Virus record (IMG/VR): IMGVR_UViG_3300025608_000006
Origin: a virus
Taxonomy: Duplodnaviria; Caudoviricetes
Length of the DNA: 64,000 nt
Direction: 5' to 3' (one strand)
This document shows, one piece after another, positions 4,419 to 55,195 of this stretch. Position numbers and translations under genes: made by a program. Under the pieces are notes generated by a model. That model saw nothing but the letters and a program-made list of their open reading frames with translations. It was not told the origin of the DNA and did no database searches. Positions within the stretch are counted from its first letter, which is position 1. Every line of letters starts with the position of its first letter.

Positions 4419-4456
4419 CTGTATAGAACACACTAACATCCAACAGGAGAAATAAC

Positions 4457-7849: not shown

Positions 7850-7879
7850 TAAGCATAAATACTGTATAGGAGATTAAGA

Positions 7880-13933: not shown

Positions 13934-13940
13934 ATACAAT

Positions 13941-15521: not shown

Positions 15522-15540
15522 TCAAGCGGATAAATACATT

Positions 15541-18645: not shown

Positions 18646-18671
18646 ACTTTACAGCTTTATAGGAGAATTTA

Positions 18672-28703: not shown

Positions 28704-28711
28704 GTTATACT
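28683..28711 (+). promoter_or_regulatory. sigma70-type promoter
   Basis: TTGACA-17 nt-TATACT upstream of 28718. Confidence 0.6.
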
Positions 28712-28717
28712 ACATGT

Positions 28718-37254: not shown

Positions 37255-37282
37255 TTGACAAATCCTATACTGATGCTATAAT
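37255..37282 (+). promoter_or_regulatory. sigma70-type promoter for primase
   Basis: TTGACA-16 nt-TATAAT with a TG just upstream of the -10. Confidence 0.7.
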
Positions 37283-37288
37283 AGTAGT

Positions 37289-39377: not shown

Positions 39378-39383
39378 TATAAT
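39355..39383 (+). promoter_or_regulatory. sigma70-type promoter for helicase
   Basis: TTGACA-17 nt-TATAAT. Confidence 0.7.
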
Positions 39384-39389
39384 AAACAC

Positions 39390-40811
39390 ATGAGCACAAG
39401 ACAAAACACAGACTATGGGTATGATATACAAAAGGTATATCTTGAGATGATGATGAGCGATGCTGAGAGCTTTGTTCGTTGTCAAGCAGTATTTGACCCT
39501 CAAGCATTTGATAGACGCTTGCAGGAAGGTGCAAAGTTTCTCACAGACTATGTGACAGAACACAACGCACTGCCCACATTCGACATGATCAATGCTGCAA
39601 CCAAAGCAGACCTCAAAGATCCTGGACAACTACAGGAGAATCACTATGATTGGCTGTTGAATGAGTTTGAAACATTCAGCAAGCACAAAGCACTGGAAGC
39701 AGCTATTCTCAAGAGCGCAGATCTGCTGGAGAATGGTGATTATGGAGCGTGTGAGGATCTAGTCAAGAAAGCTGTGCAGATTGGTCTACAGAAAGACTTG
39801 GGCACAGACTACTGGGCTGATCCAAGAACACGTCTAGAAGGCATCAAGAGCACAAACGGACAGGTCAGCACTGGTTGGGCTGCTATGGACAAGAAACTGT
39901 TTGGCGGATTCAACAGAGGCGAGCTGAATATCTTTGCAGGCGGCTCGGGTGCAGGCAAGAGTTTGTTCCTAGCCAACATCGGCGTTAACATGGCTGAGAA
40001 GGGCATGAACGTGATGTACTTGACACTGGAACTTGCAGAGAGCTTGGTTAGTATGAGAATTGACAGCATGGTCACAGGCATCAGCACACGTGATGTGTTC
40101 AAGAGCATTGATGATGTTGAGATCAAAGTCAAGATGATTGGCAAGAAGAGTGGTGCATTCCAAGTCAAGTACATGCCCTCAGGCAAGACTGCAAACGATG
40201 TGCGCAGCTATATCAAAGAGTATGAGATCAAAACAGGCAAGAAAGTAGATGTGCTGTTGATTGACTACTTGGATCTATTGATGCCAGCTGGTACAAAGGT
40301 GAGTGCAGAGAACCTGTTTATCAAAGACAAGTATGTGAGTGAAGAACTGCGTAACCTAGCAATGGAACTCAATACAGTGTTTGTTACAGCGGCACAGCTG
40401 AATCGTGGTGCTGTTGAAGAAATTGAATTTGATCACTCGCATATCTCAGGCGGTCTTAGTAAGATTCAAACAGCAGACAACGTGTTTGGTATCTTTACCA
40501 GCAGAGCAATGAGAGAACGTGGACGCTATCAACTACAGCTGATGAAAACACGTAATAGTAGCGGCGTAGGACAAAAGATTGATCTGGGCTTTGATCTAGA
40601 CACACTGCGCATCATAGACTGTGACGAAGATGAAGATGACAACTACACATCAAGCGGTGCAAGCTCAGGCGCTAGTAGTATTGTAAACAACCTCAAACGC
40701 ACCAACACAGCCAGCGAAGATCCCAGTGAAGGAGCAGCAGCACCCAAGATACGTGCTGAAACAGACAGCACCAAACTGCGAGCATTCCTCAACAATCTTG
40801 GTGACGAATGA
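39390..40811 (+). CDS. replicative DnaB-like helicase (gp41)
   Basis: AGGSGAGKS, YLTLEL, LLIDYLDL, TAAQLNR, QTAD, MKTR. Confidence 0.92.
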   Translation: MSTRQNTDYGYDIQKVYLEMMMSDAESFVRCQAVFDPQAFDRRLQEGAKFLTDYVTEHNALPTFDMINAATKADLKDPGQLQENHYDWLLNEFETFSKHKALEAAILKSADLLENGDYGACEDLVKKAVQIGLQKDLGTDYWADPRTRLEGIKSTNGQVSTGWAAMDKKLFGGFNRGELNIFAGGSGAGKSLFLANIGVNMAEKGMNVMYLTLELAESLVSMRIDSMVTGISTRDVFKSIDDVEIKVKMIGKKSGAFQVKYMPSGKTANDVRSYIKEYEIKTGKKVDVLLIDYLDLLMPAGTKVSAENLFIKDKYVSEELRNLAMELNTVFVTAAQLNRGAVEEIEFDHSHISGGLSKIQTADNVFGIFTSRAMRERGRYQLQLMKTRNSSGVGQKIDLGFDLDTLRIIDCDEDEDDNYTSSGASSGASSIVNNLKRTNTASEDPSEGAAAPKIRAETDSTKLRAFLNNLGDE

Positions 40812-41869: not shown

Positions 41870-42183
41870 TAGGAGTGAGGTTCGTTTAAGCTACACTAGG
41901 ATGTACTGTGTACATACACGCTCGTTAGCACTCACGTGTGTGTTCGCTTCGCGAGTATAACAGTTGGAAAAGGGTTCTAGCAGATTAAAAAAATTTCTGC
42001 GCAAAAAATTTTGAGATTGATTTCTATTGTGTGTGGAGGTTTTGCACACTAGCGAAAAAGGTTCTTGTAGAGTAGAAAATCTGCGCTGCGGTTTCATTAA
42101 GCATAGTACTTATAGTTTCAACCAGGTGATTTCTTAACCCCCACCCCCCGATGAAAAATTTTTTTTATTTTTTTTTATTTGAC

Positions 42184-42218
42184 AAAAAGAAAAAAGGAAC
42201 AGTGCGAACACTGCTCCC
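42184..42218 (-). terminator. Rho-independent terminator closing the early array
   Basis: Minus strand GGGAGCAGUG-UUCG-CACUGUUCC followed by UUUUUUCUUUUU. Confidence 0.85.
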
Positions 42219-42246
42219 TCTCTTCACTTCCATCCCGAGAAGTTAG

Positions 42247-42612
42247 TTAGTCTGCTCTACTGCCTGCGTAAGCTGTGAAGCCTGCTGCTGAGAACACCTT
42301 AGCTGCTGCGTATGCACCCTGCTCCTTGGTGTACATACACTGTGTGCCTAGCCCACTGGGGTTCCATATGCTGTATGCTCCTGAGTAGTCCTTCTCAAAG
42401 CCTGCTGCCTTCATACGCTTGCCCAGCTTGGTGTTGCCTTTGATGCCGTAGATGTTAACCCAAGCAAAGCCACAGTAGCCTAGCTCACCGTTAGCAGCAA
42501 TGCTGGCTTCAGCTGCATCACGTGCATGCTGTAGTGCCGCAGCCTTAATAGTTTGCAGGTCCTCTACAGTGAGGTCGTTGAGTACAGTAGTTGATGTGTT
42601 GATAGTAGTCAT
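42247..42612 (-). CDS. early hypothetical protein
   Basis: Own promoter module; GYCGFAWVNIYG. Confidence 0.7.
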   Translation of the reverse strand: MTTINTSTTVLNDLTVEDLQTIKAAALQHARDAAEASIAANGELGYCGFAWVNIYGIKGNTKLGKRMKAAGFEKDYSGAYSIWNPSGLGTQCMYTKEQGAYAAAKVFSAAGFTAYAGSRAD

Positions 42613-42674
42613 TTGCTATGCTCCTTAGCGTTAATGTATATACAGTATAGCACCTGTGTGCTGTGTGTCAACCT

Positions 42675-42947
42675 CTAATATTCGTATACAGTTGGCATTG
42701 TCAAGCCCTGGCCTGCACAGTAACGATCCAGTTCCTTGATCACTCTGCCATAGTAGTTGTACTTGTTCTGTGCTTGTGTAGCTGAGATCTCTCCATCGCA
42801 GTGTAGGTTCTCTGGGCTTAGGTCACTGTCTAGGCTACGTGCTAGATCGTTTACTTGTGTTTGGCTAAGTGGGAAGTTGATCTGCGGTGAGTTAAAGAAG
42901 CTACCCCAGGTGTTCTTCTGGTCGATGTATGCTTGTAAGTTTTTCAT
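42675..42947 (-). CDS. early hypothetical protein
   Basis: Own promoter module; LSPENLHCDGEIS. Confidence 0.7.
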   Translation of the reverse strand: MKNLQAYIDQKNTWGSFFNSPQINFPLSQTQVNDLARSLDSDLSPENLHCDGEISATQAQNKYNYYGRVIKELDRYCAGQGLTMPTVYEY

Positions 42948-43012
42948 AGTGTGCCCTCTTTGTTTAACTTATAATACTACTATAACACCAGTTGTTGAGT
43001 TTGTCAACCGTT

Positions 43013-43798
43013 TTAGTAAGAAATTTTTGCCTCATCCAAGCGAGCAGTGATAGCATCGCCGAACTGCCAACCTTCTGGCATAGTGGTGCGCCATCCCAGC
43101 TCAGTGTCAAGACGCAGTGCATCCTTGGGATCGATATAAGCAATAGCAAGATTGTCTTTGAGCATCTCTGCAACTTGTTCTACACTAGCTCCTGACTGAA
43201 ACATTTCAACACTATGCTTGAACAGTAGATCACAAGGTACAATGTGCTCACGGTATGTGCGAACATCTGTAGGTTCATTAATAGTAATATACCGATCCAC
43301 GCAGTCGAACAAGTGACGATGTAGCAATATTGTATTACCATGTTTAGTCACATCTTCAATAAACCTTGCTACGATTTCAAAGTATGGTTTGCCAGCACTA
43401 TCAAATTTCTTCCAACTGCTGGCACCAGCTGGATCCAACAAGTCACAGTCGCTGATCAATTCATACAGTGCAAGGAAGTCATCATCTAGATTGTCGGTTT
43501 CGTAGCGCAGGTTCTTTTGTGAATCGTCTACAGCAAACCCATTATCAGTTAGGTACTCGACTACAATTGGGCGACTCTGATCACCTTTGCCTCCTGGTAG
43601 TCCAACTCCAATCATCAATCGATTGCGAATGTAAAGAACTTCCAATACAACACCTGATTTAAGTGTTTGAGTATAGCAACGCTTGCCTTGACGGTCTTGT
43701 TTACCGCTACCTTCTACTCCTTCGATACTAAATCGGATACTGCTATCCTTTTGATTGATACGAGCGATAAAATCTTTGATACGTTCTTGAGGAGTCAT
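43013..43798 (-). CDS. early hypothetical protein
   Basis: True start MTPQER at 43798 behind a promoter module; C-terminal REHIVP. Confidence 0.65.
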   Translation of the reverse strand: MTPQERIKDFIARINQKDSSIRFSIEGVEGSGKQDRQGKRCYTQTLKSGVVLEVLYIRNRLMIGVGLPGGKGDQSRPIVVEYLTDNGFAVDDSQKNLRYETDNLDDDFLALYELISDCDLLDPAGASSWKKFDSAGKPYFEIVARFIEDVTKHGNTILLHRHLFDCVDRYITINEPTDVRTYREHIVPCDLLFKHSVEMFQSGASVEQVAEMLKDNLAIAYIDPKDALRLDTELGWRTTMPEGWQFGDAITARLDEAKISY

Positions 43799-43864
43799 CT
43801 TGTTGCCCTTTGCCCTAACTGTTATATACAGTATAGCATCTATCTGCTGATTGTCAACCATTAT

Positions 43865-44120
43865 TCAAAAGAAAAAGCCCGGAGCGTATTGGACGAGGGC
43901 ACATCCTGCTCCGGGCTATCCTAAAGGTTATAGAGCGTGAGGGCATACGCTGTTCTATAACCTGTTACCGCACTGTTCTTGGTGACAGCTTCGGCTTATT
44001 GCAGTCTAGGGACGAGGGCACATCCTTCGACTGTTTGAGCTAGCGCGAACGAGGGCACATTCGTTCTAGCTCAGGTTGGACTGCACCGCAGGGTGCGCTA
44101 CAGTCCTACAGTGTTGCGGA
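43865..44120 (-). ncRNA. Putative multi-hairpin regulatory RNA with UGCCCU(C) loops
   Basis: Four hairpins with different stems share one loop (plus-strand GAGGGCA at 43895, 43939, 44014, 44051); the last hairpin is followed by a U-tract on the minus strand. Confidence 0.6.
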
Positions 44121-44123
44121 GCT

Positions 44124-45125
44124 CTATGCTCGACGCATCACCGTATTCTCTGCCATCGCTTCCCACTTGTCGGGGAAAGCGCCAGCTAGGTCTGCTACCT
44201 TGAGCACTGTGCGCAGCGATAGCTCACGCAGCTTGCTCTTGTTGATCTCTACGAAATCCATGATCTCCGTCTTGACTTCTTCTGACAGTTTACGGTCATC
44301 CAACATGCCATCTTGTACCACTTGCTTGATGCGCAGTACTTTGTCCTTGTCACTATCAATAGTCAAGTCCATGTAGTGACAGCGGCTCTCCAGTGCTTCC
44401 AAGTGCTCACGCAGCTTGCCTTTTACCTTATCGAACTTCAAGTTAGTGATAAAGATAGCACTAGCTTCGAACTTGAACTTGTCTGGCACACCTTCGTTGC
44501 GCAGCTTGAAGCTGTCAGTGTTCCAGTGGATCCAACGATTCTTCTTTGAGTCCAATGCTGCTTTCAAGATGTTCAAGCTTAGGTCATCTTGGAAGATGCT
44601 GTCACAGTCATCGAACACCACTACCTTGCCTTTGTCTGCCATGTTGAACAGTTTGCAGTAGAGTCCAATTGGGCTCATAGCGCCTTTGATAACTTCGTGT
44701 GTCTTGCCTGCACCTAGTGTTTCCATAGTTGCATAGCGATCCAGCACTTCTTCAACACCATGGCTCTTGCCCACGCCCGGAGGACCTGAAACGATCATAG
44801 CGCGAACGTTTCCTTTCTTTACCGCTTTGGTCATGTCTTTGAGCATATCAAAACGTTCGCGGATGCGCTCTACAATCTCAGCGTCTGACTCCTCAGGCAA
44901 ATCGTTCTTCTCTGCTTCACCGACCAACTCGTAGTCCTCCGGGCTGCTGCATTTGATCTTGATGTTGCGGTTGGGCAAGCCTGTCACAGGAGTTGCGTCA
45001 ACTGTGACTGCGCCGCCGCTGGTTCCCATAGTAAACTCTTTGGCCATTGGGAATACAATACCGCTCATGTCTGTTTCTTTTCCACGTAGTCTATAAGTAC
45101 CATTTACAATCTTAATGTTCTGCAT
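44124..45125 (-). CDS. AAA-family P-loop ATPase
   Basis: SGPPGVGKS Walker A, VVVFDDCD Walker B, FITN sensor, ALESRC arginine finger. Confidence 0.85.
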   Translation of the reverse strand: MQNIKIVNGTYRLRGKETDMSGIVFPMAKEFTMGTSGGAVTVDATPVTGLPNRNIKIKCSSPEDYELVGEAEKNDLPEESDAEIVERIRERFDMLKDMTKAVKKGNVRAMIVSGPPGVGKSHGVEEVLDRYATMETLGAGKTHEVIKGAMSPIGLYCKLFNMADKGKVVVFDDCDSIFQDDLSLNILKAALDSKKNRWIHWNTDSFKLRNEGVPDKFKFEASAIFITNLKFDKVKGKLREHLEALESRCHYMDLTIDSDKDKVLRIKQVVQDGMLDDRKLSEEVKTEIMDFVEINKSKLRELSLRTVLKVADLAGAFPDKWEAMAENTVMRRA

Positions 45126-45193
45126 GTGTTTGCCCTCATGTGTTTGTTTAACTTATATACAGTATAGCATCAATCTAACGTTTGTCAACCACT

Positions 45194-45370
45194 TTATGTA
45201 AATATTAGATAAAGAATTCCAAGTACTGCAATCACCACAGCAGGTGGTACCAGTGTGAAGATCAAGCTGTGAACACACTGTTCCCAAAAGCCCACGTACT
45301 CGTTGCAGTTGTGACACTGTGGAGCAAAGAAGTTCTTATCCATTTGATGACAGTTTGGACATACGCTCAT
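45194..45370 (-). CDS. small Zn-ribbon membrane protein
   Basis: MSVCPNC...QCHNC followed by a hydrophobic C-terminal helix; AGGAG RBS. Confidence 0.55.
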   Translation of the reverse strand: MSVCPNCHQMDKNFFAPQCHNCNEYVGFWEQCVHSLIFTLVPPAVVIAVLGILYLIFT

Positions 45371-45371
45371 C

Positions 45372-45509
45372 TTATAATACTCCTACAAAGGATGGTTGAA
45401 GGACAGCACCTGCCCACATAAGTCCTGCGCCAAGCCATATCAGTATTGCACTCAGCAAGCCTGTTTGCCACAGCACCAAAAGGATTACTAGTTTGATCAG
45501 CGTTCCCAT
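45372..45509 (-). CDS. small membrane protein
   Basis: MGTLIKLVILLVLWQTGLLSAILIWLGAGLMWAGAVL. Confidence 0.5.
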   Translation of the reverse strand: MGTLIKLVILLVLWQTGLLSAILIWLGAGLMWAGAVLQPSFVGVL

Positions 45510-45510
45510 C

Positions 45511-45786
45511 TTAGCGATCCTTGCGATCAATAGTGATCGTTCCCTGCATCCATGATACAATCAACTCACGGTCTTCATCTGAGAAGTCTTTAGCAGTTGT
45601 ACCAAACGTAGCGCCAAAGTGTGTGAGCGCATTGCCCACATGGCTTAGGTTGTTGAGTGTGCGCAAGCCATCTTCAGTCACAGGGCCAAGTCCGTGAATC
45701 TTACCGTACTCTTCTGAGTAGTTCATCATCTCACGTCCGATAGTAGCCAGTTGCTTCTGTTCAGTTGTTGCTTCGAAAAATGCCAT
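45511..45786 (-). CDS. early hypothetical protein
   Basis: Own promoter module. Confidence 0.65.
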   Translation of the reverse strand: MAFFEATTEQKQLATIGREMMNYSEEYGKIHGLGPVTEDGLRTLNNLSHVGNALTHFGATFGTTAKDFSDEDRELIVSWMQGTITIDRKDR

Positions 45787-45896
45787 TGTGTTTGCCCTTT
45801 ATCTAATTGTTATATACAGTATAGCTTCACTTGCGGAGTTTGTCAACCCCTAATTTGGAAGTCCGCCATTCCAGTCATCACAGGGATCATCATACA

Positions 45897-46115
45897 TTAT
45901 TCGTCCTCCTGTTCACGACCTTGTGCAAAGTCCAACAAGTCTGCTGCCAATGCTGCTGCTTGTGCGCGAGTCAACTGCACCCAGCTAAACGGGCCGCCTT
46001 CGCTCCAGCTGCCTACTTTGCTCTGTGTCAATTGCACACAAGTGCCTCGGTCGCTGCCTCCAAAGAAGCGTGTCATTGTTACGCCTTCTGCGTGTGTTTT
46101 CAATTCTGTTGACAT
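45897..46115 (-). CDS. early hypothetical protein
   Basis: Own promoter module; RFFGGSDRGTCVQLTQ. Confidence 0.65.
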   Translation of the reverse strand: MSTELKTHAEGVTMTRFFGGSDRGTCVQLTQSKVGSWSEGGPFSWVQLTRAQAAALAADLLDFAQGREQEDE

Positions 46116-46180
46116 CGTGTGCTCCTCTAATGTCTAACTTATACATACACTATAGCACCACTGTGCTAGTTTGTCAACCA

Positions 46181-46345
46181 CAAAAGTAGCAGGAGGAGTA
46201 CTTTTTTTGATCGAGGGCACAATCAAATGTTCCTCTACTCCTGCTATTTGTCCGGGCTCTGGGGCAAGTCTATTAATAGTCCCCAGCGCCGACAGTCGCT
46301 ATGTGATCTGTGCTTCACGGTTATTAGCACGAGCGCTGTCTACTC
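46181..46345 (-). ncRNA. Putative structured RNA 3' of the tRNA cluster, ending in a UGCCCU-loop hairpin
   Basis: Stems GACAG/CTGTC, GTGCT/AGCAC, CTGGGG/CCCCAG and TAGCAGGAG/CTCCTGCTA enclosing TTTGAT-TG-TGCCCT-CG-ATCAAA. Confidence 0.5.
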
Positions 46346-46349
46346 AGTT

Positions 46350-46426
46350 TGGCCTCCCCTGCAGGATTCGAACCTGCGACCCACAGCTTAGAAGGCTGTT
46401 GCTCTATCCAGCTGAGCTAAGGAGAG
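46350..46426 (-). tRNA. tRNA-Arg(UCU)
   Basis: CTCTCCTTAGCTCAG...ACAGC-CTTCTAA-GCTGT...GGTTCGAATCC...GGCCA; encoded CCA. Confidence 0.95.
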
Positions 46427-46430
46427 TATA

Positions 46431-46507
46431 TGGTGGGCCCACCGAGACTCGAACTCGGAACCTACGGATTATGAGTCCGGTGCTCTAACCAATTGAGCTA
46501 TAGGCCC
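46431..46507 (-). tRNA. tRNA with CAU anticodon, probably Ile2 (lysidine) rather than Met
   Basis: GGGCCTATAGCTCAATTGG...CTCATAA...GTTCGAG...GGGCCCACCA; acceptor stem resembles bacterial tRNA-Ile2. Confidence 0.85.
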
Positions 46508-46513
46508 TGTCTT

Positions 46514-46598
46514 TGGTGCTCCCTGTCGGACTTGAACCGACATGCCTTGCGGCGACAGATTTTAAGTCTGTTGTGTATACCTATTCCACCAAGGGAGC
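46514..46598 (-). tRNA. tRNA-Leu(UAA)
   Basis: 85 nt with long variable arm; ACAGA-CTTAAAA-TCTGT; encoded CCA. Confidence 0.93.
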
Positions 46599-46612
46599 GA
46601 ATTCTGTTTTAC

Positions 46613-46771
46613 TTATGCCCCATCATCCATTTCTAATTCAAACTCTGAAGCCATATCTTCTTCAATAGCTTCAGCAAGTGCTTCATACTTGGCTCGCAGT
46701 TCGCTTACCTGCCGCAGCGACAGCACACGATCCAAGTCTTTGATAACATCTTGTAGTGTAATATAATCCAT
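46613..46771 (-). CDS. small acidic hypothetical protein
   Basis: MDYITLQDVIKDLDRV...; TAATG coupling with the upstream gene. Confidence 0.55.
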   Translation of the reverse strand: MDYITLQDVIKDLDRVLSLRQVSELRAKYEALAEAIEEDMASEFELEMDDGA

Positions 46772-46968
46772 TACTGCACCCATACGTGGTTGAATTTGGT
46801 TGGAAGGTTATCACAGCTGAAGATCTCATCTGTGTAGTTAACGACTTTGACGCACTCATTTGTTGCGTAGCTAACATGGACATCTGGCGCACTCAACGCT
46901 GAGTTCATTGCGTATCCTAGTCCTGCTAACATAGTCCCTGCAAACGCGATAGTAAAAACTGCTTTCAT
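46771..46968 (-). CDS. early membrane-anchored hypothetical protein
   Basis: Own promoter module; N-terminal hydrophobic helix; CVKV...C. Confidence 0.65.
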   Translation of the reverse strand: MKAVFTIAFAGTMLAGLGYAMNSALSAPDVHVSYATNECVKVVNYTDEIFSCDNLPTKFNHVWVQ

Positions 46969-47042
46969 TGTCGTTGCCCTTTTGCTTAACTGTTATATAC
47001 AGTATAGCGCCGAAACGCTATACTGTCAACACCTAATTTGCC

Positions 47043-47291
47043 TTATTCAGCAAAAACTTTTGCACGTGATCCTGTGATGTCACGAGCACTTACTGCATAG
47101 CGAGCCTTGCCCGTTGTAGCAGTGTCCACACGCACGTTCAATCCAGCAGCTCGCAAGTCGCTGATTCGTGCAGTTAGATTTTGGATTCCGAAACGTGCCT
47201 TTGCATCAGCAGCAGTGATTGTCTTGCCAGTGCCACGCAGGTAAGTTTCAAGGAATGCAGTTTGGTTTGATTTAATAGTAGTAAAGCTCAT
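47043..47291 (-). CDS. small helix-turn-helix DNA-binding protein
   Basis: LETYLRGTGKTITAADAKARFGIQNLTARISDLRAAG winged-HTH-like pattern. Confidence 0.65.
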   Translation of the reverse strand: MSFTTIKSNQTAFLETYLRGTGKTITAADAKARFGIQNLTARISDLRAAGLNVRVDTATTGKARYAVSARDITGSRAKVFAE

Positions 47292-47390
47292 AATATGTAC
47301 CCTTTAGAAAGTTTAGTTTAAAGTTTGCCTATCAACACTTTTTGCTCCAGTGTCTATATAGTATAGCACCTTTGCGGGATATGTCAACCC

Positions 47391-47585
47391 CTAATTGAAC
47401 ATATCGTCCCAAGCATCTTCAGTGATGCCAGTCTTGATGAACTCACGCTCACCAGCTGTTAGTTGGGGGAATGCATCCTGTACCAACAGTTTGCCTTCAA
47501 AGTAGGCTTCAACCTGCTCGTAGGTTACGTCAAGATCCATGGTGTTCTCTTGGCCGTTGAATGGATTAGTACGTGTGATTTTCAT
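47391..47585 (-). CDS. early hypothetical protein
   Basis: Own promoter module; QDAFPQLTAGEREFIKTGIT. Confidence 0.7.
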   Translation of the reverse strand: MKITRTNPFNGQENTMDLDVTYEQVEAYFEGKLLVQDAFPQLTAGEREFIKTGITEDAWDDMFN

Positions 47586-47650
47586 AGTGTTTGCCCTTTT
47601 CCCTAACTGTTATATACAGTATAGCATCAATTGAGGATTTGTCAACCTCT

Positions 47651-47848
47651 TTATGCAGTTTTAGTGCCAGTCTTTAGATTATATTCAAAGCGCAGACCGC
47701 CCAGTACATCACGACAGCGGATGTAATCATAGTAGCCTTGTGCCTTCATTGCTTGATGAACAGCCTTGCCATCCGCAGCGTTTGATACAGTGTCTACCCA
47801 CTGCTCTGCACCACCGTCTTTGATTCCGAATATTTTGTAGCTTCTCAT
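47651..47848 (-). CDS. early hypothetical protein
   Basis: Own promoter module. Confidence 0.65.
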   Translation of the reverse strand: MRSYKIFGIKDGGAEQWVDTVSNAADGKAVHQAMKAQGYYDYIRCRDVLGGLRFEYNLKTGTKTA

Positions 47849-48062
47849 CGTATTGCCCTTTGCCCTAACTGTTATATACAGTATAGCACACTCTACGGAT
47901 TTGTCAACCCCTAATTGTCACTAACAATAAATTCACGCTCTTCTGGCAGGTATGCTATCAGCACATCTTTGGGCACTCGTTGCAGCATCTCGTAGAGTGC
48001 AGTTGTGTCCCGATCTTCGAGGTCGTTCTCTATCTGGTGAATCACTTCGTCCCACAGGTCCA

Positions 48063-48344
48063 TCATAGCGCATACTCCTTATTGGATTTCAACTGCCACT
48101 TCTCTAACACAGGCAAGCCGTATTCATCTTCGTCCACAACCACATAGGCAACTGTCTTCTTGACTGTGCCATAACGGTAGCCAGTCATGCCAGCAACACC
48201 GCCACCACCTACCCATATCTTGTGCAGCGTGTCCTCATTGCAGTTGTTCAACGGATCATCGTTGACACTATACTCGAAGTAATTGCCTGTGTCCTTCTCA
48301 ACGAAGCAACCTATTGGATCTTTGGTGTAGGTGTAGTATGCCAT
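48063..48344 (-). CDS. early hypothetical protein
   Basis: Own promoter module; TVKKTVAYVVVDEDEYG. Confidence 0.65.
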   Translation of the reverse strand: MAYYTYTKDPIGCFVEKDTGNYFEYSVNDDPLNNCNEDTLHKIWVGGGGVAGMTGYRYGTVKKTVAYVVVDEDEYGLPVLEKWQLKSNKEYAL

Positions 48345-48443
48345 GTCTTGCCCTCATTGCCTAACTGTTATATACAGTATATGCTCTAATAGGGGATCTG
48401 TCAACCATTATTTGGAAAAAAGATCCCCTTTAGAATCAATAGC

Positions 48444-49010
48444 TTACAAGCCTGTGGGTGCTAGGTTTACTTCTTCGTCTTCATCCTCTTCTTCTTCCAT
48501 TTCCTCATACTCTGCAAGACGCTCGTCTAGAGCATATTCGTCCACAAGATACTCTGGGATCATGTTGCGAACAGTGTCTGAGGTTGCACCTGAATAGTCA
48601 TAGTGGTCGTCAGCACCTTCTGAATCCCAGTAGCCAACGAAGCACATACCGCCTTCTTCGTAGTATGCTTCTAGGTATACGCCGTCCATGTCATCACAGA
48701 ACGCTGAGTAAGCGTCAATGGGCGGGCTCCAAGCCGAATCAAACCAACCTGTGATCTCACTAGTGCCGTCACCGTTGTCTGTGAACTCAAGACCTTCAGT
48801 ATCAACATCCCACTTGGTCCCCCAGTTAGTGACACACCAGTCATACCAGTTAGGCCCGTCACTAGGAGCAGTTGTCCCTTCTAGTTCCTTAGGCATAGGA
48901 ATCATTGCGTTCAACAAGCCGCTGCCTTCTTGATTAGCGTCTTCCCACAGTTCCTTGATAGTCTCTGTGGAACCTTTGATTGTGATTGAGTTGTTGCACC
49001 AGTTAGGCAT
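48444..49010 (-). CDS. MPNWC-type (DUF1281/YubB ferredoxin-like) protein
   Basis: MPNWCNN, WYDWCVTNWGTKWD, FDSAWSPP, YYEEG. Confidence 0.7.
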   Translation of the reverse strand: MPNWCNNSITIKGSTETIKELWEDANQEGSGLLNAMIPMPKELEGTTAPSDGPNWYDWCVTNWGTKWDVDTEGLEFTDNGDGTSEITGWFDSAWSPPIDAYSAFCDDMDGVYLEAYYEEGGMCFVGYWDSEGADDHYDYSGATSDTVRNMIPEYLVDEYALDERLAEYEEMEEEEDEDEEVNLAPTGL

Positions 49011-49161
49011 AGTCAGTCTCCCCCATAAGTTCTGTATCTACAATATCGGAATGTTCAAACGAGTAATCACACTCGCTCATGATGTCCTGGATGTCAGCGT
49101 CCCTAAGGACCTCCAACGCCACTGTGACATAAACTGTCTTGGTGTTGTCAGCGCCTGCCAT
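49003..49161 (-). CDS. small acidic hypothetical protein
   Basis: MAGADNTKTVYVTVALEV...; coupled to both neighbours. Confidence 0.5.
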   Translation of the reverse strand: MAGADNTKTVYVTVALEVLRDADIQDIMSECDYSFEHSDIVDTELMGETDYA

Positions 49162-49379
49162 TAGCAGTCCTCCCCAAATGCGTCATACAGTTCTGTCAAG
49201 TAATCAACGTCTGGCTCATCGTCTTCGAAGAACCGCTCGCTCAACTCATTACAGTCAAGCATATCCTCAACGTCATCGTTGCTCATATACTTGAGCGCCA
49301 TAGTCAGCATGTCTTCTGCTGACACCATGCCGTTCTCAACCAACTCAAGTGCGATATCTCTGTAGTTTGTCATTTGCAA
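49161..49379 (-). CDS. early hypothetical protein
   Basis: Own promoter module; LKYMSNDDVEDML. Confidence 0.65.
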   Translation of the reverse strand: MQMTNYRDIALELVENGMVSAEDMLTMALKYMSNDDVEDMLDCNELSERFFEDDEPDVDYLTELYDAFGEDC

Positions 49380-49447
49380 ATGCCCTCTGCTTTGTTTAAC
49401 TTATATATACACTATAGCACCGAATGCGCTATGTGTCAACCTCTTTT

Positions 49448-49651
49448 TTAAGCTATAGCTTCTTCTTTTGTTTTGCGATGATAGAACGCTTCCAAGTCTA
49501 CGCAGCCGTCTACTTCAAGACCTGCGAGCAGCTGGGTGCGTTCTTGTTCATCGAATGCTTGATGATATTCATCCGGAGTATATTCACTAGCAGCGCAGTA
49601 GTTGGCGCCTTCCCAAACTAGTACAAAACGGTTGAAACGTACTTCTGACAT
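49448..49651 (-). CDS. early hypothetical protein
   Basis: True start MSEVRF behind a promoter module. Confidence 0.6.
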   Translation of the reverse strand: MSEVRFNRFVLVWEGANYCAASEYTPDEYHQAFDEQERTQLLAGLEVDGCVDLEAFYHRKTKEEAIA

Positions 49652-49723
49652 AGCAGTAATCCCTCTGCGTTTGTTTCTATACAAGTAGTATAACACAGCC
49701 CGAAGGCTGTGTCAACCTTTTTT

Positions 49724-50206
49724 TTAGATGTCGTAGCCTTGTGCTTTGAGGCGTGCCACTTCAAGTGTTACACGAGTCTCCAAGTCGTCAAAGATTGGAA
49801 AGCCAAGTGCGTCCGAACCTGCATTGTAACGGTCATGCACAATCCAACCTGCGGCAGTGTGCAAGTAAAAGTATTCGCAGCCGCTGCCTGTGTAGTATTC
49901 AACAAACTCCTGCACAGTGTCAAACTCGACTGCTTCTGTGTTGCTTTCGCCTCTGTCACGTCCGTAGAATACAGTAACGCCTTCCTCTGGAGTTGCAAAG
50001 CTGTGTCCGCTGCCTGGCATTGGAAAAATTTCTTCTGCCATGTAGCTTTGATCGCCTAGCTCTACCATCTGTGCAACTTTGCGAGCTTGCTGGTAGTGCT
50101 CCTGCAACGTGCGTCCTGCGCCTGCTACATAGCCATCATAGTGTGAATACTTTGCACGGATTTTGCCTTCTGGTGTTTTGTAACCAATTGCTGAACGAGT
50201 TCCCAT
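49724..50206 (-). CDS. early hypothetical protein (MGTRS-type)
   Basis: Own promoter module; MGTRSAIG...HYDGY...YGRDRGE...EYFYL. Confidence 0.7.
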   Translation of the reverse strand: MGTRSAIGYKTPEGKIRAKYSHYDGYVAGAGRTLQEHYQQARKVAQMVELGDQSYMAEEIFPMPGSGHSFATPEEGVTVFYGRDRGESNTEAVEFDTVQEFVEYYTGSGCEYFYLHTAAGWIVHDRYNAGSDALGFPIFDDLETRVTLEVARLKAQGYDI

Positions 50207-50285
50207 TGCATATGCTCCTTATGCGTTTGTTTAACTTATACATACACTATAGCACCTGAATGCTATAGTGTCAACCTTTTTCTGC

Positions 50286-50561
50286 CTATGCCTCCAAACT
50301 TTTTAGCATGCTGGCTGTGACCTTCCACTTGCCCTGCGTGGGCGAGTTTACAATCACTGTCTTGCGATTGATTTTCTCAACCATTCCCGTCACAGTGCGT
50401 CCACCGCGTCCTGTGAAGCTTACAGCATCGCCTACAGTGAGTGAACGTGCTGTAGCTCGTGCGTTGAATGTGCGTTGGAGTTTGATTGCTTCAACCACTT
50501 GGTTGATCTCATCGTTGTTCATGTTGCGGATTGCTGTGATTGCGGTTTGTACGTTGTTCAT
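50286..50561 (-). CDS. early hypothetical protein with SH3/KOW-like C-terminus
   Basis: Own promoter module; LTVGDAVSF...GMVEKINRKTVIV...WKVTASML. Confidence 0.7.
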   Translation of the reverse strand: MNNVQTAITAIRNMNNDEINQVVEAIKLQRTFNARATARSLTVGDAVSFTGRGGRTVTGMVEKINRKTVIVNSPTQGKWKVTASMLKSLEA

Positions 50562-50604
50562 CTTGTAGCCCTCTTTGTTAACTTATACATACACTATAGC
50601 ACCA

Positions 50605-50823
50605 CTATGCTAGAATGTCAACCTCTTTTTCAAACTTTTCTACAGTTTCTTCAAATTGTTTTGCAAGCGATACCAAGTTCATCATAGCAAACTCAGCTTC
50701 CATGCTGCCTGCTTCTGTTGTGTCCAGTATGCGGATGCGCTCTGCCATCATGCCTGCGATTGCTTTATATGCACCGCACTCACGTGCTGTCTTCATGCTT
50801 TGATCAAAAAATGTATCGTTCAT
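50605..50823 (-). CDS. early hypothetical protein
   Basis: Own promoter module; C-terminus overlaps the next promoter. Confidence 0.65.
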   Translation of the reverse strand: MNDTFFDQSMKTARECGAYKAIAGMMAERIRILDTTEAGSMEAEFAMMNLVSLAKQFEETVEKFEKEVDILA

Positions 50824-50887
50824 CTTGTTGCCCTCTTGCTTAACTTATACATACACTATAGCACCAGTCGTGCTAGTTGTCAACTCC

Positions 50888-51280
50888 TTATTGCAAGAAA
50901 TCTTCCTTTAGGATCTCCAGCATACGAACTGCTTCTGTACGTGCTTGATCAATAGCTTCAATTGCCATGCCGTTGATAACGCCGTCTGTTTTGTCATCTT
51001 GTGCCAGCCAATCTGCAGGTGACTCTGCTACAATTGAGCCTAGGTAGCTCTCGCCCATAACCTTGCCGTCATACTTGGCTTGCACACGAACGATCATGTG
51101 CTGCCAAAAGCCCGACTCCAAGTTTTCAATCAACTCAGGGTAGTAGTCTGCCTCAGTGTCAAACAACAGATCCAACTGAGTGTCGTCTGGAGCGAACGCA
51201 ATCTCTACTGTGAACTGCTCGTGGTCGAACTCTTCCTCTACGTAGAAGTTGTCGTTGTTTTTGAAAAATGCGTGTGTCAT
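50888..51280 (-). CDS. early hypothetical acidic protein
   Basis: Own promoter module. Confidence 0.65.
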   Translation of the reverse strand: MTHAFFKNNDNFYVEEEFDHEQFTVEIAFAPDDTQLDLLFDTEADYYPELIENLESGFWQHMIVRVQAKYDGKVMGESYLGSIVAESPADWLAQDDKTDGVINGMAIEAIDQARTEAVRMLEILKEDFLQ

Positions 51281-51429
51281 GTGCTTGCCCTTTGTTCTAA
51301 CTATACATACACTATAGCACAGGTGTGCTGGGTTGTCAACCTCTAATTTAAACTTTTTTCTGAGGACCCAACAGCGGGGCCTACAGGTGTGTACACTATA
51401 GCACAGTGTGCGCTATAGTGCAAATTATT

Positions 51430-51675
51430 TTATAGCTGCTCTAGTGCAGCTTCTATTATATTATGCGCACAGCTGTCTGTTGCAAAGCCCTCCTCTTGTG
51501 CAAAGTCGACGCTGCTGCTGCACATAATAGTGTCTGTGTTTACATTAACGTTGTTTGCTGTAAACAGTGCTGCAAGTTGTGCTGCTGTGTATGCAGCGCC
51601 TACAACTGTGTTGTTTACTGTTACAACAATTGCAGCGTCTGTTGCGTTTAGGAATACGTAGTTTGTGTTTTGCAT
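51430..51675 (-). CDS. early hypothetical protein (GA/TC-poor segment)
   Basis: Own promoter module; CSSSVDFAQEEGF. Confidence 0.6.
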   Translation of the reverse strand: MQNTNYVFLNATDAAIVVTVNNTVVGAAYTAAQLAALFTANNVNVNTDTIMCSSSVDFAQEEGFATDSCAHNIIEAALEQL

Positions 51676-51804
51676 AATGTGCTCCTCATATGCTTGTTTA
51701 ACTTATACATACACTATAGCATATGTATAAGCAGTTGTCAACTGAAAGTAATTGTTGGAAAACAAGCACTTAGCATTTTTTTACTAAGTGCTTGTTTTTG
51801 TTGG

Positions 51805-52074
51805 TTAAATTGCGCAATGTACAATGCGCAAATAACGTGCTGTGCTAGGCATAGCGTATGCAAACGTTTTAGTTGCGTGTACACATTTAACGTTTAGTGC
51901 TTGCTGCAACTGCTGCAATACACTAGGAGGCATGCTGCTTACAGTAAAGCACAAGTTGCGCAGTTTAGGATTTACACACATATTTGTATAAGTGTGCTTG
52001 CTTACAGCAATATTGTTTTGCTTTAGGATGTTACGTACAATGTTACGTGCTGTTTTAGTAGTAGTATTTTGCAT
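51805..52074 (-). CDS. early hypothetical protein lacking Asp/Glu/Gly/Trp
   Basis: True start MQNTTTK behind a promoter module. Confidence 0.55.
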   Translation of the reverse strand: MQNTTTKTARNIVRNILKQNNIAVSKHTYTNMCVNPKLRNLCFTVSSMPPSVLQQLQQALNVKCVHATKTFAYAMPSTARYLRIVHCAI

Positions 52075-52165
52075 ATAAAGCCCTCTATGCTTGTTTACGT
52101 TATATACACTTATAGCACAAGTGTGCGCTGCTGTCAAGTGTTTTTTTAACAGCAGCACAACTTTT

Positions 52166-52369
52166 TTACAAGTACTTGCTTTCGTTTACCTCGTCGTTGC
52201 TGTAGCGTGTAGCTGCTACAATTGCAGCATAATCGGAGTTTGCCGCTAATAGCTGCTGCATAACAGCAACAAGCTCCTCTGCTGTGTCTATGCACAGTGT
52301 TTGCGTTTGTGTTACGTACTCGAGTTGTTGTGCGCAGTGCTGTAGTGCTAGTGCTTGTGTAATTTGCAT
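52166..52369 (-). CDS. early hypothetical protein
   Basis: True start MQITQ behind a promoter module. Confidence 0.55.
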   Translation of the reverse strand: MQITQALALQHCAQQLEYVTQTQTLCIDTAEELVAVMQQLLAANSDYAAIVAATRYSNDEVNESKYL

Positions 52370-52461
52370 AGTTTGCCCTCTATGTTTGTTTACGTTATAA
52401 CTTAATATAGCACAAGTGTGCGCTGCTGTCAACTGAAAAATGCTAACAGCAGCAACTTTTT

Positions 52462-52755
52462 TTATGCAACTTGCATACTTGTAATAGTGTCTGCATAGTA
52501 GTGCAGCATGCTATACATGCATTCTCTAACAGCAGTATCCGCAGCACTGTTTAAACAGGCAGCTGCTAAACTGTTTACTGTTGTGTGCTGCATGTAGTTG
52601 TCGTATAAAAATTGCATTTTATAGCAGTTGTCTAATATGCAGTAGTCGTTTGCTTCCGCTACGCTGTCATGTGCAGCGTGTGTAATTGCTTCCGCATAGC
52701 TTGCAATTGCGCTTGCTACTACTTCCGCATAAATTGCTTGTTGTGTGTTTTGCAT
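52462..52755 (-). CDS. early hypothetical protein
   Basis: Promoter module with a TAGACA -35 variant. Confidence 0.55.
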   Translation of the reverse strand: MQNTQQAIYAEVVASAIASYAEAITHAAHDSVAEANDYCILDNCYKMQFLYDNYMQHTTVNSLAAACLNSAADTAVRECMYSMLHYYADTITSMQVA

Positions 52756-52892
52756 AGTAATGCCCTCTATGTTGTTAACTTATACATACACTATAGCATA
52801 TGTTTGTGTGTTTGTCTAGCGAAAAGAAGTGTTGGAAAACAAGCACTTAGCATTTTTTTTGTAAGTGCTTGTTTTTGTTAATTAAATTATTT

Positions 52893-53126
52893 TTACGTTT
52901 GCCATGCAACTACACTGTCATTTTGTATAGCAACACGTACATTTTCTAATGCGCCATTTGCTGCACTACGCTTTGCAAAAAAGTGCATAATGTCTCCGGC
53001 ACTGTGTTTTGTTTTGTTGTAAAAATTAAAACTTGTGTATACACACTTGTCTACTGCACAGTAAGCAACAGCAGTTGCGTTAGTAGCAAGGTCGGATACA
53101 TTATTAGCATTTGTGTAACGTAGCAT
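52893..53126 (-). CDS. early hypothetical protein
   Basis: Own promoter module. Confidence 0.55.
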   Translation of the reverse strand: MLRYTNANNVSDLATNATAVAYCAVDKCVYTSFNFYNKTKHSAGDIMHFFAKRSAANGALENVRVAIQNDSVVAWQT

Positions 53127-53309
53127 ATTATAGCCCTCTATTTTGTTAACTTGTACATACAGTATAACACAAACAGCACAGTTGTCAACTGAAAAATGAA
53201 CAAAAATGAACAGCTAAGTCATTGACTGCCAACAGTTTTAAATTTTATTTTAGCCAATACAATCAAACACTTAGCAGCACCTCGGGCACAAATGTGAACA
53301 CAGTCGGCA

Positions 53310-53642
53310 CTACATGCTCCAGTATGCCTCACTAGCTGGGCTCATATAGTTGGGAGTGTTGACCGACTCAGTATACAGTGTGTTGCTCATCATATTTGTG
53401 CGTGTGCGACTCTTCTCAATAGTACTATGGAAGTAGTTGGCCTCTGCTATGCCATAACGGTACTGAGGATCGTTGACTGAGTCCTTGAGGTCTGCTCTAT
53501 AACGTTTGCTCATCTTAGTAAGAGCAGCTTGGGCAGCACTCATGGTCTTGTAGCTCTTGCGGTGATCTGGACGAACCTCGCCCGAACGTGTGTCCATCTT
53601 GCCCATGATGTAAGTTGACGATTTTTCATAAATGTAATACAT
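53310..53642 (-). CDS. early hypothetical protein
   Basis: Own promoter module; ESVNTPNYMSPASEAYWSM. Confidence 0.7.
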   Translation of the reverse strand: MYYIYEKSSTYIMGKMDTRSGEVRPDHRKSYKTMSAAQAALTKMSKRYRADLKDSVNDPQYRYGIAEANYFHSTIEKSRTRTNMMSNTLYTESVNTPNYMSPASEAYWSM

Positions 53643-53701
53643 AGTGATCCCTCTACGTTTGTTAACTTATAATACTACTATAGCACCATACTGCAGGCTT
53701 G

Positions 53702-53917
53702 TCAACCTTTTTGTTTGAGGCGCCGCCTTCTTTGAGCAGCCACCTGGGGTCTGAATTGTTCTTTTAGTGTGCTCAAGTTCTCGCTCACAAACTCTTCAAA
53801 TGAATATGGTTGAACCTGACGGAAGCCATCATACTCATCTCGATTCTCCCAGTAGCGATTGGTACAGAACACTCTGAAACTTCTTGGACGATGATAGCTT
53901 GAATGTGAATGACTCAT
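53702..53917 (-). CDS. early hypothetical protein
   Basis: True start MSHSH behind the first promoter module of the array. Confidence 0.6.
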   Translation of the reverse strand: MSHSHSSYHRPRSFRVFCTNRYWENRDEYDGFRQVQPYSFEEFVSENLSTLKEQFRPQVAAQRRRRLKQKG

Positions 53918-54025
53918 GTTATAGCCTCTGATCAATTAACCTATACACTAACTATAACACCAACAGTTGCGTTTGTCAACCTCTGATTCACAAACTCAAC
54001 AACAAACAACAGAACCTAAACCCCC

Positions 54026-54632
54026 AACAGCGGGGCCTTTACAGCACAGTGTACAGTATACTAGTAGTAGAGTCAATAGTAGTAGAGCTGAGTGTGAACA
54101 GTATAGTAATAGTAGTAGTAGAGCACAACCTATACAGCATAGTAGTAGCAGTAGTAGTTGAGCTAGAGTTGACACTATACAGTCAGTCAGGTGCTGTACT
54201 AGTAGTAGAGCTCTACGAGGAAGGTGCCAACAGCGGGGCCTTTGACAGCATACACGGTGTCATACACGGTGTCAACACCATCAAATGTGGTTTTCTTGGT
54301 TGATTTTGGGTGAGTAGATGTTATAATATAACAGTTCTCTTCACGGTTTGCACCACTATATATAGTATGAAAAAAATTCTTGCGCTCGGTCACGAGAGGC
54401 ATAGTTCAAATACTTTTGCAGGTTTGCATTCTACAGTTTACACCTTTGCAATTTGCAACTCACACTCGTTAACAGCGGGGCCTTTGTGTGTGTACGTTGG
54501 TTGTATAGGCTCAATAGCTCCGCTCAACTACTACTACTACTACTAGCAGTATCACTACTACTACTCATACTACTCATACTCAAGATGGATAGGCTCTTCT
54601 ACTCCAGTAGATTGTTCAACAGCGGGGCCTTT
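54026..54632 (+). repeat. Four direct copies of AACAGCGGGGCCTTT (fifth, partial copy at 51370)
   Basis: Exact 15-mers at 54026, 54229, 54471 and 54618 within low-complexity (TAG)n/(CTA)n DNA. Confidence 0.85.
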
Positions 54633-54717
54633 GTGTGTTTGCTACTACTACTATAGTCCGTGTATACGCATATGCCTTTTATGCTTGACAGAGTGTATAG
54701 TGTGTGCTATATAGTAG

Positions 54718-54987
54718 ATGTATTTGTATTGTATAAGTGATGGTTCATTGTGTAAGTTTGGTTATAGTGTGGATCCTCAACGTAGATTGCGTAGTTTACA
54801 AACGGGTAGTAGTAGTCAATTAGAGTTGGTTCATAGTATACTAGTAGATGTAGATCAGGGTAGGGTATTAGAGCGTACATTTCATCGTGAGTATGCTCAT
54901 CGTCGTGCTAGAGGGGAATGGTTTCGTTGTACAGTAGAGGAAGCAGTAGTGTGGTTAACGTGGTTTGAAATACACTATGTTAACTAG
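54718..54987 (+). CDS. T5orf172/GIY-YIG-like protein
   Basis: YLYCI...KFGYSVDPQRRLRSLQTG...LERTFH...GEWF; TTGACA promoter upstream. Confidence 0.75.
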   Translation: MYLYCISDGSLCKFGYSVDPQRRLRSLQTGSSSQLELVHSILVDVDQGRVLERTFHREYAHRRARGEWFRCTVEEAVVWLTWFEIHYVN

Positions 54988-55195
54988 ATTTCTTGCCCAT
55001 TAGTCGAGCTTTGTATTCATCAGCTGCTGACTGTTTGGGTTGTTCTCGTTGAGTGGGTTCAGGGTCTTCTACTACTACACTAGCGGGTTCAAGGTTTGTG
55101 TTTGTGCTGTTGAGTTCTAGTTGTGCTCTTAGACGCTCGATGCGAGTTCTTAGTTCTTGTACTTTTTGATGTATATCCATTGGGTGCGCTTTCAC
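54980..55195 (-). CDS. hypothetical coiled-coil protein
   Basis: 71 aa ORF in the minus-strand cluster. Confidence 0.5.
   Translation of the reverse strand: MKAHPMDIHQKVQELRTRIERLRAQLELNSTNTNLEPASVVVEDPEPTQREQPKQSAADEYKARLMGKKSS

Follow-up and report, generated by a model that had tools for sequence, protein, structure and literature searches.

The 64,000-nucleotide (nt) stretch analysed here, IMG/VR virus record IMGVR_UViG_3300025608_000006 (below: the window), comes from an uncultured marine jumbo phage. Its early genes are headed by promoter-leader cassettes that carry the ribosome-binding box AGGGC(A), and the same strand encodes two structured non-coding stretches whose hairpin loops read UGCCCUC, the reverse complement of GAGGGCA. 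Judged from the sequence, we see an even chance that these multi-loop RNAs act as antisense RNAs that pair with the leader boxes and thereby mask or destabilise all early transcripts. This suggests one RNA switch acting on all early messages.

The box in the leaders of early transcripts

The early genes lie on the minus strand behind 24 promoter-leader cassettes, each heading one small gene or a short operon. A cassette reads (G)GTTGACA, N16-17, (TGC)TATAGT/TATACT, a leader of 30-39 nt (68 nt in one) and ATG, and the conserved unit is about 65-75 bp long. The promoters match 11 of the 12 positions of the sigma-70 consensus in 23 of the 24 cassettes, and most have TG before the -10. The cassettes, their boxes and three core-gene sites used for comparison are:

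42612..53984, minus strand: array of 24 early promoter-leader cassettes
53922..53927, minus strand: box variant AGGCTA, ATG 53917
53647..53652, minus strand: box variant AGGGAT, ATG 53642
53132..53137, minus strand: box AGGGCT, ATG 53126
52761..52766, minus strand: box AGGGCA, ATG 52755
52374..52379, minus strand: box AGGGCA, ATG 52369
52079..52084, minus strand: box AGGGCT, ATG 52074
51681..51686, minus strand: hybrid box AGGAGC(A), ATG 51675; predicted to pair with the loop through one bulged A
51286..51291, minus strand: box AGGGCA, ATG 51280
50829..50834, minus strand: box AGGGCA, ATG 50823
50567..50572, minus strand: box AGGGCT, ATG 50561
50214..50219, minus strand: hybrid box AGGAGC(A), ATG 50206
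49659..49664, minus strand: box variant AGGGAT, ATG 49651
49381..49386, minus strand: box AGGGCA, ATG 49373
48349..48354, minus strand: box AGGGCA, ATG 48344
47854..47866, minus strand: doubled box AGGGCAA-AGGGCAA, ATG 47848
47592..47604, minus strand: AGGGAAA plus AGGGCAA, ATG 47585
47298..47303, minus strand: box variant AGGGTA, ATG 47291, in the 68-nt leader
46975..46980, minus strand: box AGGGCA, ATG 46968; the transcript continues into the tRNAs and the second loop RNA
46121..46126, minus strand: hybrid box AGGAGC(A), ATG 46115
45793..45798, minus strand: box AGGGCA, ATG 45786
45131..45136, minus strand: box AGGGCA of the AAA-ATPase gene, ATG 45125
43804..43816, minus strand: doubled box AGGGCAA-AGGGCAA, ATG 43798
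42952..42957, minus strand: box AGGGCA(C), ATG 42947
42620..42625, minus strand: hybrid box AGGAGC(A), ATG 42612
4445..4449, plus strand: comparator AGGAG of the tail-sheath gene, ATG 4457
7868..7872, plus strand: comparator AGGAG, ATG 7880
18661..18665, plus strand: comparator AGGAG of the UvsX-like recombinase gene, ATG 18672

The counts of the first-pass annotation are exact. Within the last 22 nt, AGGGC is found in 16 of the 24 leaders, AGGGCA in 13 and AGGAGCA in four, and the four remaining leaders have variants (AGGGAT twice, AGGGTA and AGGCTA). The boxes before 43798 and 47848 are doubled, and the core genes at 4457, 7880 and 18672 are preceded by AGGAG, as it had described. This enrichment is far from what shuffling yields, as in 2000 shuffles AGGGC occurs in 0.5 leaders on average and never in more than 4. 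In the 11.4-kb region, 18 of the 22 coding-strand copies of AGGGC fall at most 25 nt upstream of a cassette ATG, and at core gene starts, taken heuristically as the first ATG of long open reading frames, there are none in 32 (Fisher 1.8e-8).

Relatives were collected through the AAA-ATPase gene of the early region, giving 51 IMG/VR loci and the best 80 metagenome loci (~130 in total); the latter all have an ATPase identity of at least 63% and thus stop short of any deeper clade with a different tag. Leader statistics are from 35 IMG/VR loci with 286 distinct leaders, and neither leaders nor relatives are phylogenetically independent. AGGGC is present in 228 of these 286 leaders, with its A mostly 8-13 nt before the ATG, a normal spacing for a Shine-Dalgarno (SD) site.

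The same annotation had called AGGGCA a weaker SD that pairs poorly with the 16S tail. The energies show otherwise. To ACCUCCUUA, the usual 16S tail, the 24 early leaders average -6.3 kcal/mol and the 32 core genes -4.9 kcal/mol. Fifteen boxes of the form GAGGGC or GAGGGA hold the canonical GAGG and reach -6.1 to -6.3 kcal/mol, and the hybrid boxes -8.3 to -8.6 kcal/mol. The six AAGGG boxes form 5 bp with the tail, one G-U pair among them, at -4.4 kcal/mol, improving to -6.2 in the two doubled leaders. The early leaders thus range from -4.4 to -8.6 kcal/mol. The three AGGAG examples alone reach -7.3, and seven operon-internal early genes average -7.8 kcal/mol. Canonical SD sites have at least 4 nt complementary to the CCUCC core and stand about 5-10 nt upstream of the start, and the boxes agree with both. 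Accordingly, the box is neither a weak nor a non-canonical SD site.

It is extremely improbable that an unusual host ribosome explains the box, i.e., that the 16S 3' end of the host fits AGGGCA better than AGGAG. Core and operon-internal genes of the same phage use AGGAG, GGAG or AAGGA, and therefore their ribosome reads a canonical site, which contradicts a 16S fitted to AGGGCA. The CCUCC core of the 16S tail is also conserved across bacteria.

The box was further proposed to be a recognition tag of the early gene class. The idea of a tag gains from the retention of G-C-A, from boxes placed upstream of the SD and from complementary loops, all described below, while the gene class has to be given up, as the box is largely confined to promoter-proximal leaders. 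None of the seven operon-internal early genes of the window has AGGGC; they have GGAG-type sites instead (Fisher 0.002). Across the 35 related loci the box occurs in 209 of 278 distinct cassette-first leaders and at 5 of 116 operon-internal starts, of which 56% have GGAG. The box is thus common in cassette-first leaders and rare at internal starts, and therefore what it marks is every early transcript, in its 5' leader, and not every early gene.

Two further properties set the box apart from the leader around it. The G-C-A that follows the SD core is not needed for ribosome pairing, and it is retained in diverged orthologous leaders. Of 28 distinct relatives, 21 keep AGGGC in the leader of the ATPase orthologue, although this leader is otherwise divergent in sequence and length. 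In 20 leaders the box is found only upstream, 8 or 13 nt after the -10, together with a separate SD of another type. Such upstream boxes are commoner in leaders without a box at the SD position (20/78 against 12/208, p = 9e-6), also when the lineage L029 is removed (p = 0.018). Homogenisation by itself does not account for the box, because it is kept in diverged ATPase leaders and appears upstream when the SD differs.

In L029 (IMG/VR contig 3300010316_001058; leaders at 2113-16937) the leader has the box TAGGGCAA(C) at its extreme 5' end, 8 nt behind the -10, and AAGGAG or GAGGGA as a separate SD; of the three downstream loops in this lineage, two are UUGCCCU, which matches AGGGCAA. In G001, a 275-kb relative, GAGGGCA also precedes a few larger minus-strand genes (212 and 393 aa), at 173686 and 176869, outside the early array. 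The pairs of TGCCCTC at 173.6 and 176.9 kb of this contig, considered as loop clusters, are actually these GAGGGCA sites.

Not only the box but the whole promoter and leader are conserved. The homologous genes of three relatives (L004, L009 and L011) stand in a permuted order compared to the window, with cassettes in between. Ten of the 24 cassettes have a hairpin that is formed within the promoter spacer and reaches into the -10 (z < -2), and clear upstream terminators are present only at some cassettes. The inverted repeats occur in 17-nt spacers and pair with the TGCTATA(G) of the extended -10, e.g., at 50246-50274, 49687-49715 and 47001-47029 on the minus strand; CTATAGCA-N6-TGCTATAG and ACAGCC-TTCG-GGCTGT are examples, with energies of -5.6 to -12.8 kcal/mol. 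One possibility is that the spacer hairpin represents the terminator half of a terminator-promoter unit that has been compacted; another is that it serves to occlude the -10. Four short marine viral contigs (L003, L005, L007 and L012) have an exact 23-nt promoter and initial-transcribed segment, TGCTATAGTGTATGTATAAGTTA, in common with the window. Their sites have AAGGAG or CGAGGT instead of the box, and therefore the promoter module extends beyond the box-bearing clade; the contigs are too short to judge whether loops are present.

Complementary hairpin loops and their conservation

TGCCCTC, the reverse complement of GAGGGCA, is present in 13 copies in the window, against 3.6 expected. Seven of the eight plus-strand copies are the leader boxes themselves. 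All five copies on the minus strand, i.e., the strand of the early genes, lie in hairpin loops of two non-coding stretches, four of them in the 262 nt between the stop codon of the ATPase gene and its terminator and one in the 170 nt behind a tRNA cluster:

44124..45125, minus strand: AAA+ ATPase gene, 333 aa, phrog_1250, function unknown
43862..44123, minus strand: structured non-coding 3' end of the ATPase transcript with four (U/A)UGCCCUC hairpins, -111.8 kcal/mol, z = -7.8
44051..44057, minus strand: loop 1, UGCCCUC
44014..44020, minus strand: loop 2, UGCCCUC
43939..43945, minus strand: loop 3, UGCCCUC, in the 8-nt loop AUGCCCUC
43895..43901, minus strand: loop 4, UGCCCUC, at the tip of the terminator hairpin (stem 43876-43917, U-tract 43867-43875)
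46350..46598, minus strand: tRNA-Leu(taa), tRNA-Met(cat) and tRNA-Arg(tct)
46180..46349, minus strand: second structured non-coding RNA, behind the tRNAs, z = -4.7, with loop 5 at the tip of a terminator-like end hairpin
46213..46219, minus strand: loop 5, UGCCCUC

Both stretches fold far better than their shuffles (z = -7.8 and -4.7). In the ensemble, opening the six bases costs 0.0 kcal/mol in the loops and 1.5 kcal/mol in the leader boxes. In the relatives the AAA-ATPase gene is always directly upstream of the multi-loop RNA, and in six of them a GCCCUC hairpin stands 20-35 nt past the last tRNA.

The three tRNAs are shared between the window and seven relatives (L015, L021, L024, L030, L042, L044 and L022), and all three circular permutations of their order (Leu-Met-Arg, Met-Arg-Leu and Arg-Leu-Met) are seen among the relatives.

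An Rfam scan of 42000-55000 gave only the tRNAs above threshold, with no match to the C4 model or to other small RNA (sRNA) families; RsmY matches weakly at 47001-47107, with 21.8 bits where the gathering score is 57. The 269-nt RNA has a blastn match in none of 50,697 phage records. The RNA-seq-supported ncRNA001 and ncRNA002 of the Pseudomonas jumbo phage PA5oct, and its early promoters, have no comparable architecture. A protein sponge of the CsrB/RsmZ type, binding CsrA, was also considered and rejected, as such a sponge has GGA in its hairpin loops and mimics the mRNA targets, whereas the loops here read GCCCUC, which is complementary and not identical to the leader motif.

The complementarity is also found in the relatives. 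The two commonest hexamers of the distinct leaders (last 22 nt) are AGGGCA (62%) and GAGGGC (60%), and in 24 distinct IMG/VR stretches downstream of the ATPase gene the commonest are GCCCTC (77) and TGCCCT (52). The top leader hexamers are thus the exact reverse complements of the top downstream hexamers. In the metagenome set, AGGGC occurs in 280 of 345 leaders, and GCCCTC and TGCCCT are counted 201 and 130 times downstream.

The loops are kept on stems that vary. We analysed 31 distinct GTGCCCTCG sites from the window and its relatives, picked by this 9-mer alone. Pairing of their flanks holds in 87.6% of cells and drops to 52% or less when the flanks are slid, and the covariation score is 0.52, compared to 0.16 in shuffles (0 of 500 reach 0.52). 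Several compensatory pair types occur in the stems, while the loop is invariant. The GCCCUC core is also displayed by further hairpin classes, whose loops have 8-10 nt. Except in L029, the only agreement between the letters that follow AGGGC and those that precede GCCCU is the A-U pair.

In one lineage the box itself is different. In L135, L140 and L141, whose ATPase is about 65% identical, AGGGC is lost and the commonest leader reads AGAGA-A-CUAGC. The downstream loop there is GCUAG-CCC-UCUCU; the leader pairs with it at -12.5 kcal/mol and with the main-clade loop at -5.1. Judged by these pairings, box and loop have changed together in this lineage. Box and loops are both missing from more distant clades (L045, L052 and their relatives), whose contigs show no enrichment of GCCCTC.

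A candidate RNA switch and its alternatives

The predicted pairing separates early from core genes. With the loop treated as a free strand, the duplex between the loop 10-mer and the early leaders averages -12.5 kcal/mol, and 23 of 24 leaders reach -9 or better; for core genes the mean is -3.8 and only 1 of 32 does so. AGGGCA/UGCCCU is at -9.1 and GAGGGCA/UGCCCUC at -12.0 kcal/mol, whereas the box and the 16S tail pair at -6.3. In the hybrids, GAGG-A-GCAC and GUGC-CCUC form a duplex with one bulged A at -14.6 kcal/mol, which would account for the GCA kept in all four.

We suggest that the box has a dual role, as the ribosome-binding site of the first cistron and as a landing site for the UGCCCU(C) loops; G-C-A would be retained because (G)AGGGCA is also the loop target. 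The loop RNAs would be stable structured RNAs made from promoters of the early region itself. As they accumulate, every early transcript would have its 5'-proximal SD covered by 6-7 bp of loop-leader pairing; initiation would then be blocked, and the entire message would probably decay. The outcome would be a class-wide shut-off of early expression, in which late and core genes, with AGGAG or AAGGA sites, would not be matched by the loops. Both an encounter of the two RNAs in the cell and a repressive effect are inferred. More tentatively, at somewhat less than an even chance, it can be speculated that a lytic jumbo phage here times its early programme with RNA alone, using private SD extensions and accumulating multi-loop RNAs that titrate all early transcripts and leave the AGGAG late genes untouched. 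Such timing would take the part that the proteins RegA and RegB play in T4.

Several observations weigh against this proposal. The core complementarity is invariant within the main clade, and a concerted change is seen in only one lineage. The flanks do not co-evolve, as leaders pair equally well with their own loops (-14.54) and with foreign ones (-14.53), and the 5' flank of the loops, UGU, is not tuned to the commonest continuation of the leader, GGGCAA. Pyrimidine-rich loops are always partly complementary to purine-rich SDs. A closed 6-nt loop strains a full 6-bp helix, a cost that duplex energies for a free strand do not include. L032 and L033 keep GCCCUC loops, yet most of their SDs are GAGGGA, which leaves 5 bp; this weakens the proposal a little. 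Finally, operon-internal early genes are untagged, and therefore cistron-by-cistron control is excluded and an effect at the level of the transcript is needed. One tag per transcript would fit an effect on the message and not on single cistrons.

An alternative that we consider rather unlikely is that the cassette explains everything. The box would then be an efficient ordinary SD and spacer inside a mobile cassette of the promoter-early stem-loop (PeSL) kind, made uniform by selection for strong early expression and by recombination among cassettes. The complementarity would be idle or the relic of an inverted leader fragment, and the GCCCUC hairpins would be unrelated stabilisers of 3' ends or terminators. 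The normal pairing with the 16S tail, the conservation of the entire promoter and leader and the lack of co-evolving flanks all agree with this, as does the shuffled gene order with cassettes at the junctions, known from PeSLs (PMC2839356, PMC4122927); the box also follows the cassette and not the gene class (209/278 first against 5/116 internal starts). However, it does not explain why G-C-A is retained in orthologous leaders that have otherwise diverged, or why the box appears upstream when the SD differs. It also leaves unexplained that the top hexamers are reverse complements in two collections, for which we estimate a chance of ~1 in 1000 or less. The invariant loops on covarying stems and the joint change of box and loop in one lineage are further points that the cassette does not predict.

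If the box is read by something other than a loop, the reader could be a protein or the DNA itself could be the target. An RNA-binding protein or endoribonuclease of phage or host that recognises the extended box, like RegB (with S1) or RegA in T4, is unlikely in our estimate. T4 provides a precedent, since RegB/S1 reads an extended SD motif of the early class (PMC3014915); a single 5' tag per transcript suits a nuclease or decay signal, and the A-rich 3' continuation of the box is conserved (GGGCAA 49%). However, complementary loops are left unexplained if AGGGCA is read by a protein; they would need to do something else or hold the leaders in duplexes for a protein such as RNase III to act on. 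Five relative contigs, among them a 275-kb one that is 77% complete, gave no homologue of RegB (PF10715) or RegA (PF01818), which is weak evidence, as control genomes are equally silent. We consider it very unlikely that GAGGGCA/TGCCCTC is a DNA operator, whose binding protein would sit just behind each early promoter to form a roadblock or shut expression off, with sites clustered in the two non-coding stretches. Orientation strictly follows context: on the transcribed strand, leaders always have the sense form and hairpin loops the antisense form; the flanking stems covary, which is a property of single strands, and the distance to the ATG is tight (8-13 nt). These points contrast with what an operator has in its favour, namely one site per promoter, a variable distance from the promoter that a roadblock could tolerate, and the occurrence of both orientations.

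If the antisense pairing is real, this would, within a limited literature search, be the first known virulent phage that addresses a temporal class of its own messages by a trans-acting RNA, and the address would be a class-specific ribosome-binding code. Next to the protein routes by sigma factors, RegA and RegB, the early-to-late switch would gain an RNA route, and the uniform early leaders of a large clade of uncultured marine phages would be explained. An SD extension of 6-7 nt and a matching loop would also be a compact orthogonal pair for synthetic control of translation. The canonical promoters and SD cores make a direct test in E. coli possible. Should the pairing be idle, still the reading of the box as a weak, non-canonical ribosome-binding site is corrected and PeSL-like shuffling of cassettes is extended outside the T4 group.

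The phage and its place among known systems

The plus strand of the window encodes a tail sheath protein (1117 aa), the large terminase (TerL), a UvsX-like recombinase, a DnaB-type helicase and a primase. TerL is 54% identical to that of PA5oct, and no cultured phage is closer; ATPase and TerL reach 46-54% identity to PA5oct, without close cultured relatives. A megablast search of the early region against cultured phages matched only the tRNAs. The relatives used here are drawn from marine metagenomes.

Two features outside the cassettes were also noted. Plus-strand core promoters at 28683-28720, 37255-37291 and 39355-39392 consist of TTGACA, N17 and a TATAAT-like -10 that ends 6 nt before the ATG; the genes behind them are a 390-aa gene of unknown function, the primase and the DnaB-like helicase. 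A -10 only 6 nt from the ATG suggests leaderless mRNAs for these three core genes. The 12-mer GGCCCCGCTGTT has five minus-strand copies, against 0.08 expected. Four of them (54026-54037, 54229-54240, 54471-54482 and 54618-54629) are in a non-coding block at 54.0-54.6 kb and the fifth (51370-51381) is within the early array, directly downstream of the promoter-like TGCTATAGT, which lacks a -35 (about 51395-51424). Every copy is able to form a CCCC/GGGG hairpin.

The array resembles the PeSLs, the mobile promoter-early stem-loop cassettes of T4-type phages (Arbiol et al. 2010, PMC2839356; Comeau et al. 2014, PMC4122927). Both consist of many near-identical units of a sigma-70-type early promoter, an SD and a start codon before small ORFan genes, and both stand at junctions of gene order between related genomes. 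However, PeSLs belong to T4-type myoviruses while the phage studied here is a distant relative of PA5oct (TerL 54%). The stem-loop is within the promoter spacer in 10 of 24 cassettes, with a clear terminator upstream, where PeSLs have it, only at some, and an SD extension with a complement encoded in trans has not been described for PeSLs.

The loops are comparable to the C-rich-loop sRNAs that mask SDs, i.e., RNAIII and the Rsa RNAs with UCCC of S. aureus (Geissmann et al. 2009, PMC2790875) and LhrC of Listeria (PMC4132741). These are also stable RNAs with a C-rich motif in several open loops that is complementary to the G-rich ribosome-binding sites of many mRNAs. In the present case, a lytic-phage RNA would be aimed at the phage's own early transcripts, as predicted from sequence. 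Its targets carry an apparently co-adapted SD extension, GGGCA, that sets them apart from the other genes of the phage, and its loops lie in a 3' untranslated region and behind tRNAs, without sequence or Rfam relation to these sRNAs.

In its operation, the proposed system would be closest to these Gram-positive antisense RNAs and to the c4 RNA of P1, while the array is PeSL-like. The phages P1 and P7 encode c4 as a processed antisense RNA, with loops that bind the ribosome-binding region of a phage mRNA from the same transcription unit; it has one target operon and acts in lysogenic immunity. Here at least 24 targets would be addressed in a lytic jumbo phage, and the Rfam C4 model does not match.

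In T4, RegB and RegA shut off the early class post-transcriptionally through a motif in the ribosome-binding site of early messages, which for RegB is an extended SD, GGAG-RAYARAA (Uzan and Miller 2010, PMC3014915). The motif found here is GAGGGCA, with GGAG in only 4 of 24 early leaders, and the candidate reader is an RNA, in contrast to the proteins of T4. The system belongs to no curated RNA family, nor to the RegA/RegB system of T4; it would consist of a multi-loop antisense RNA that the phage encodes against the whole class, and of an extension of the ribosome-binding site co-adapted to it.

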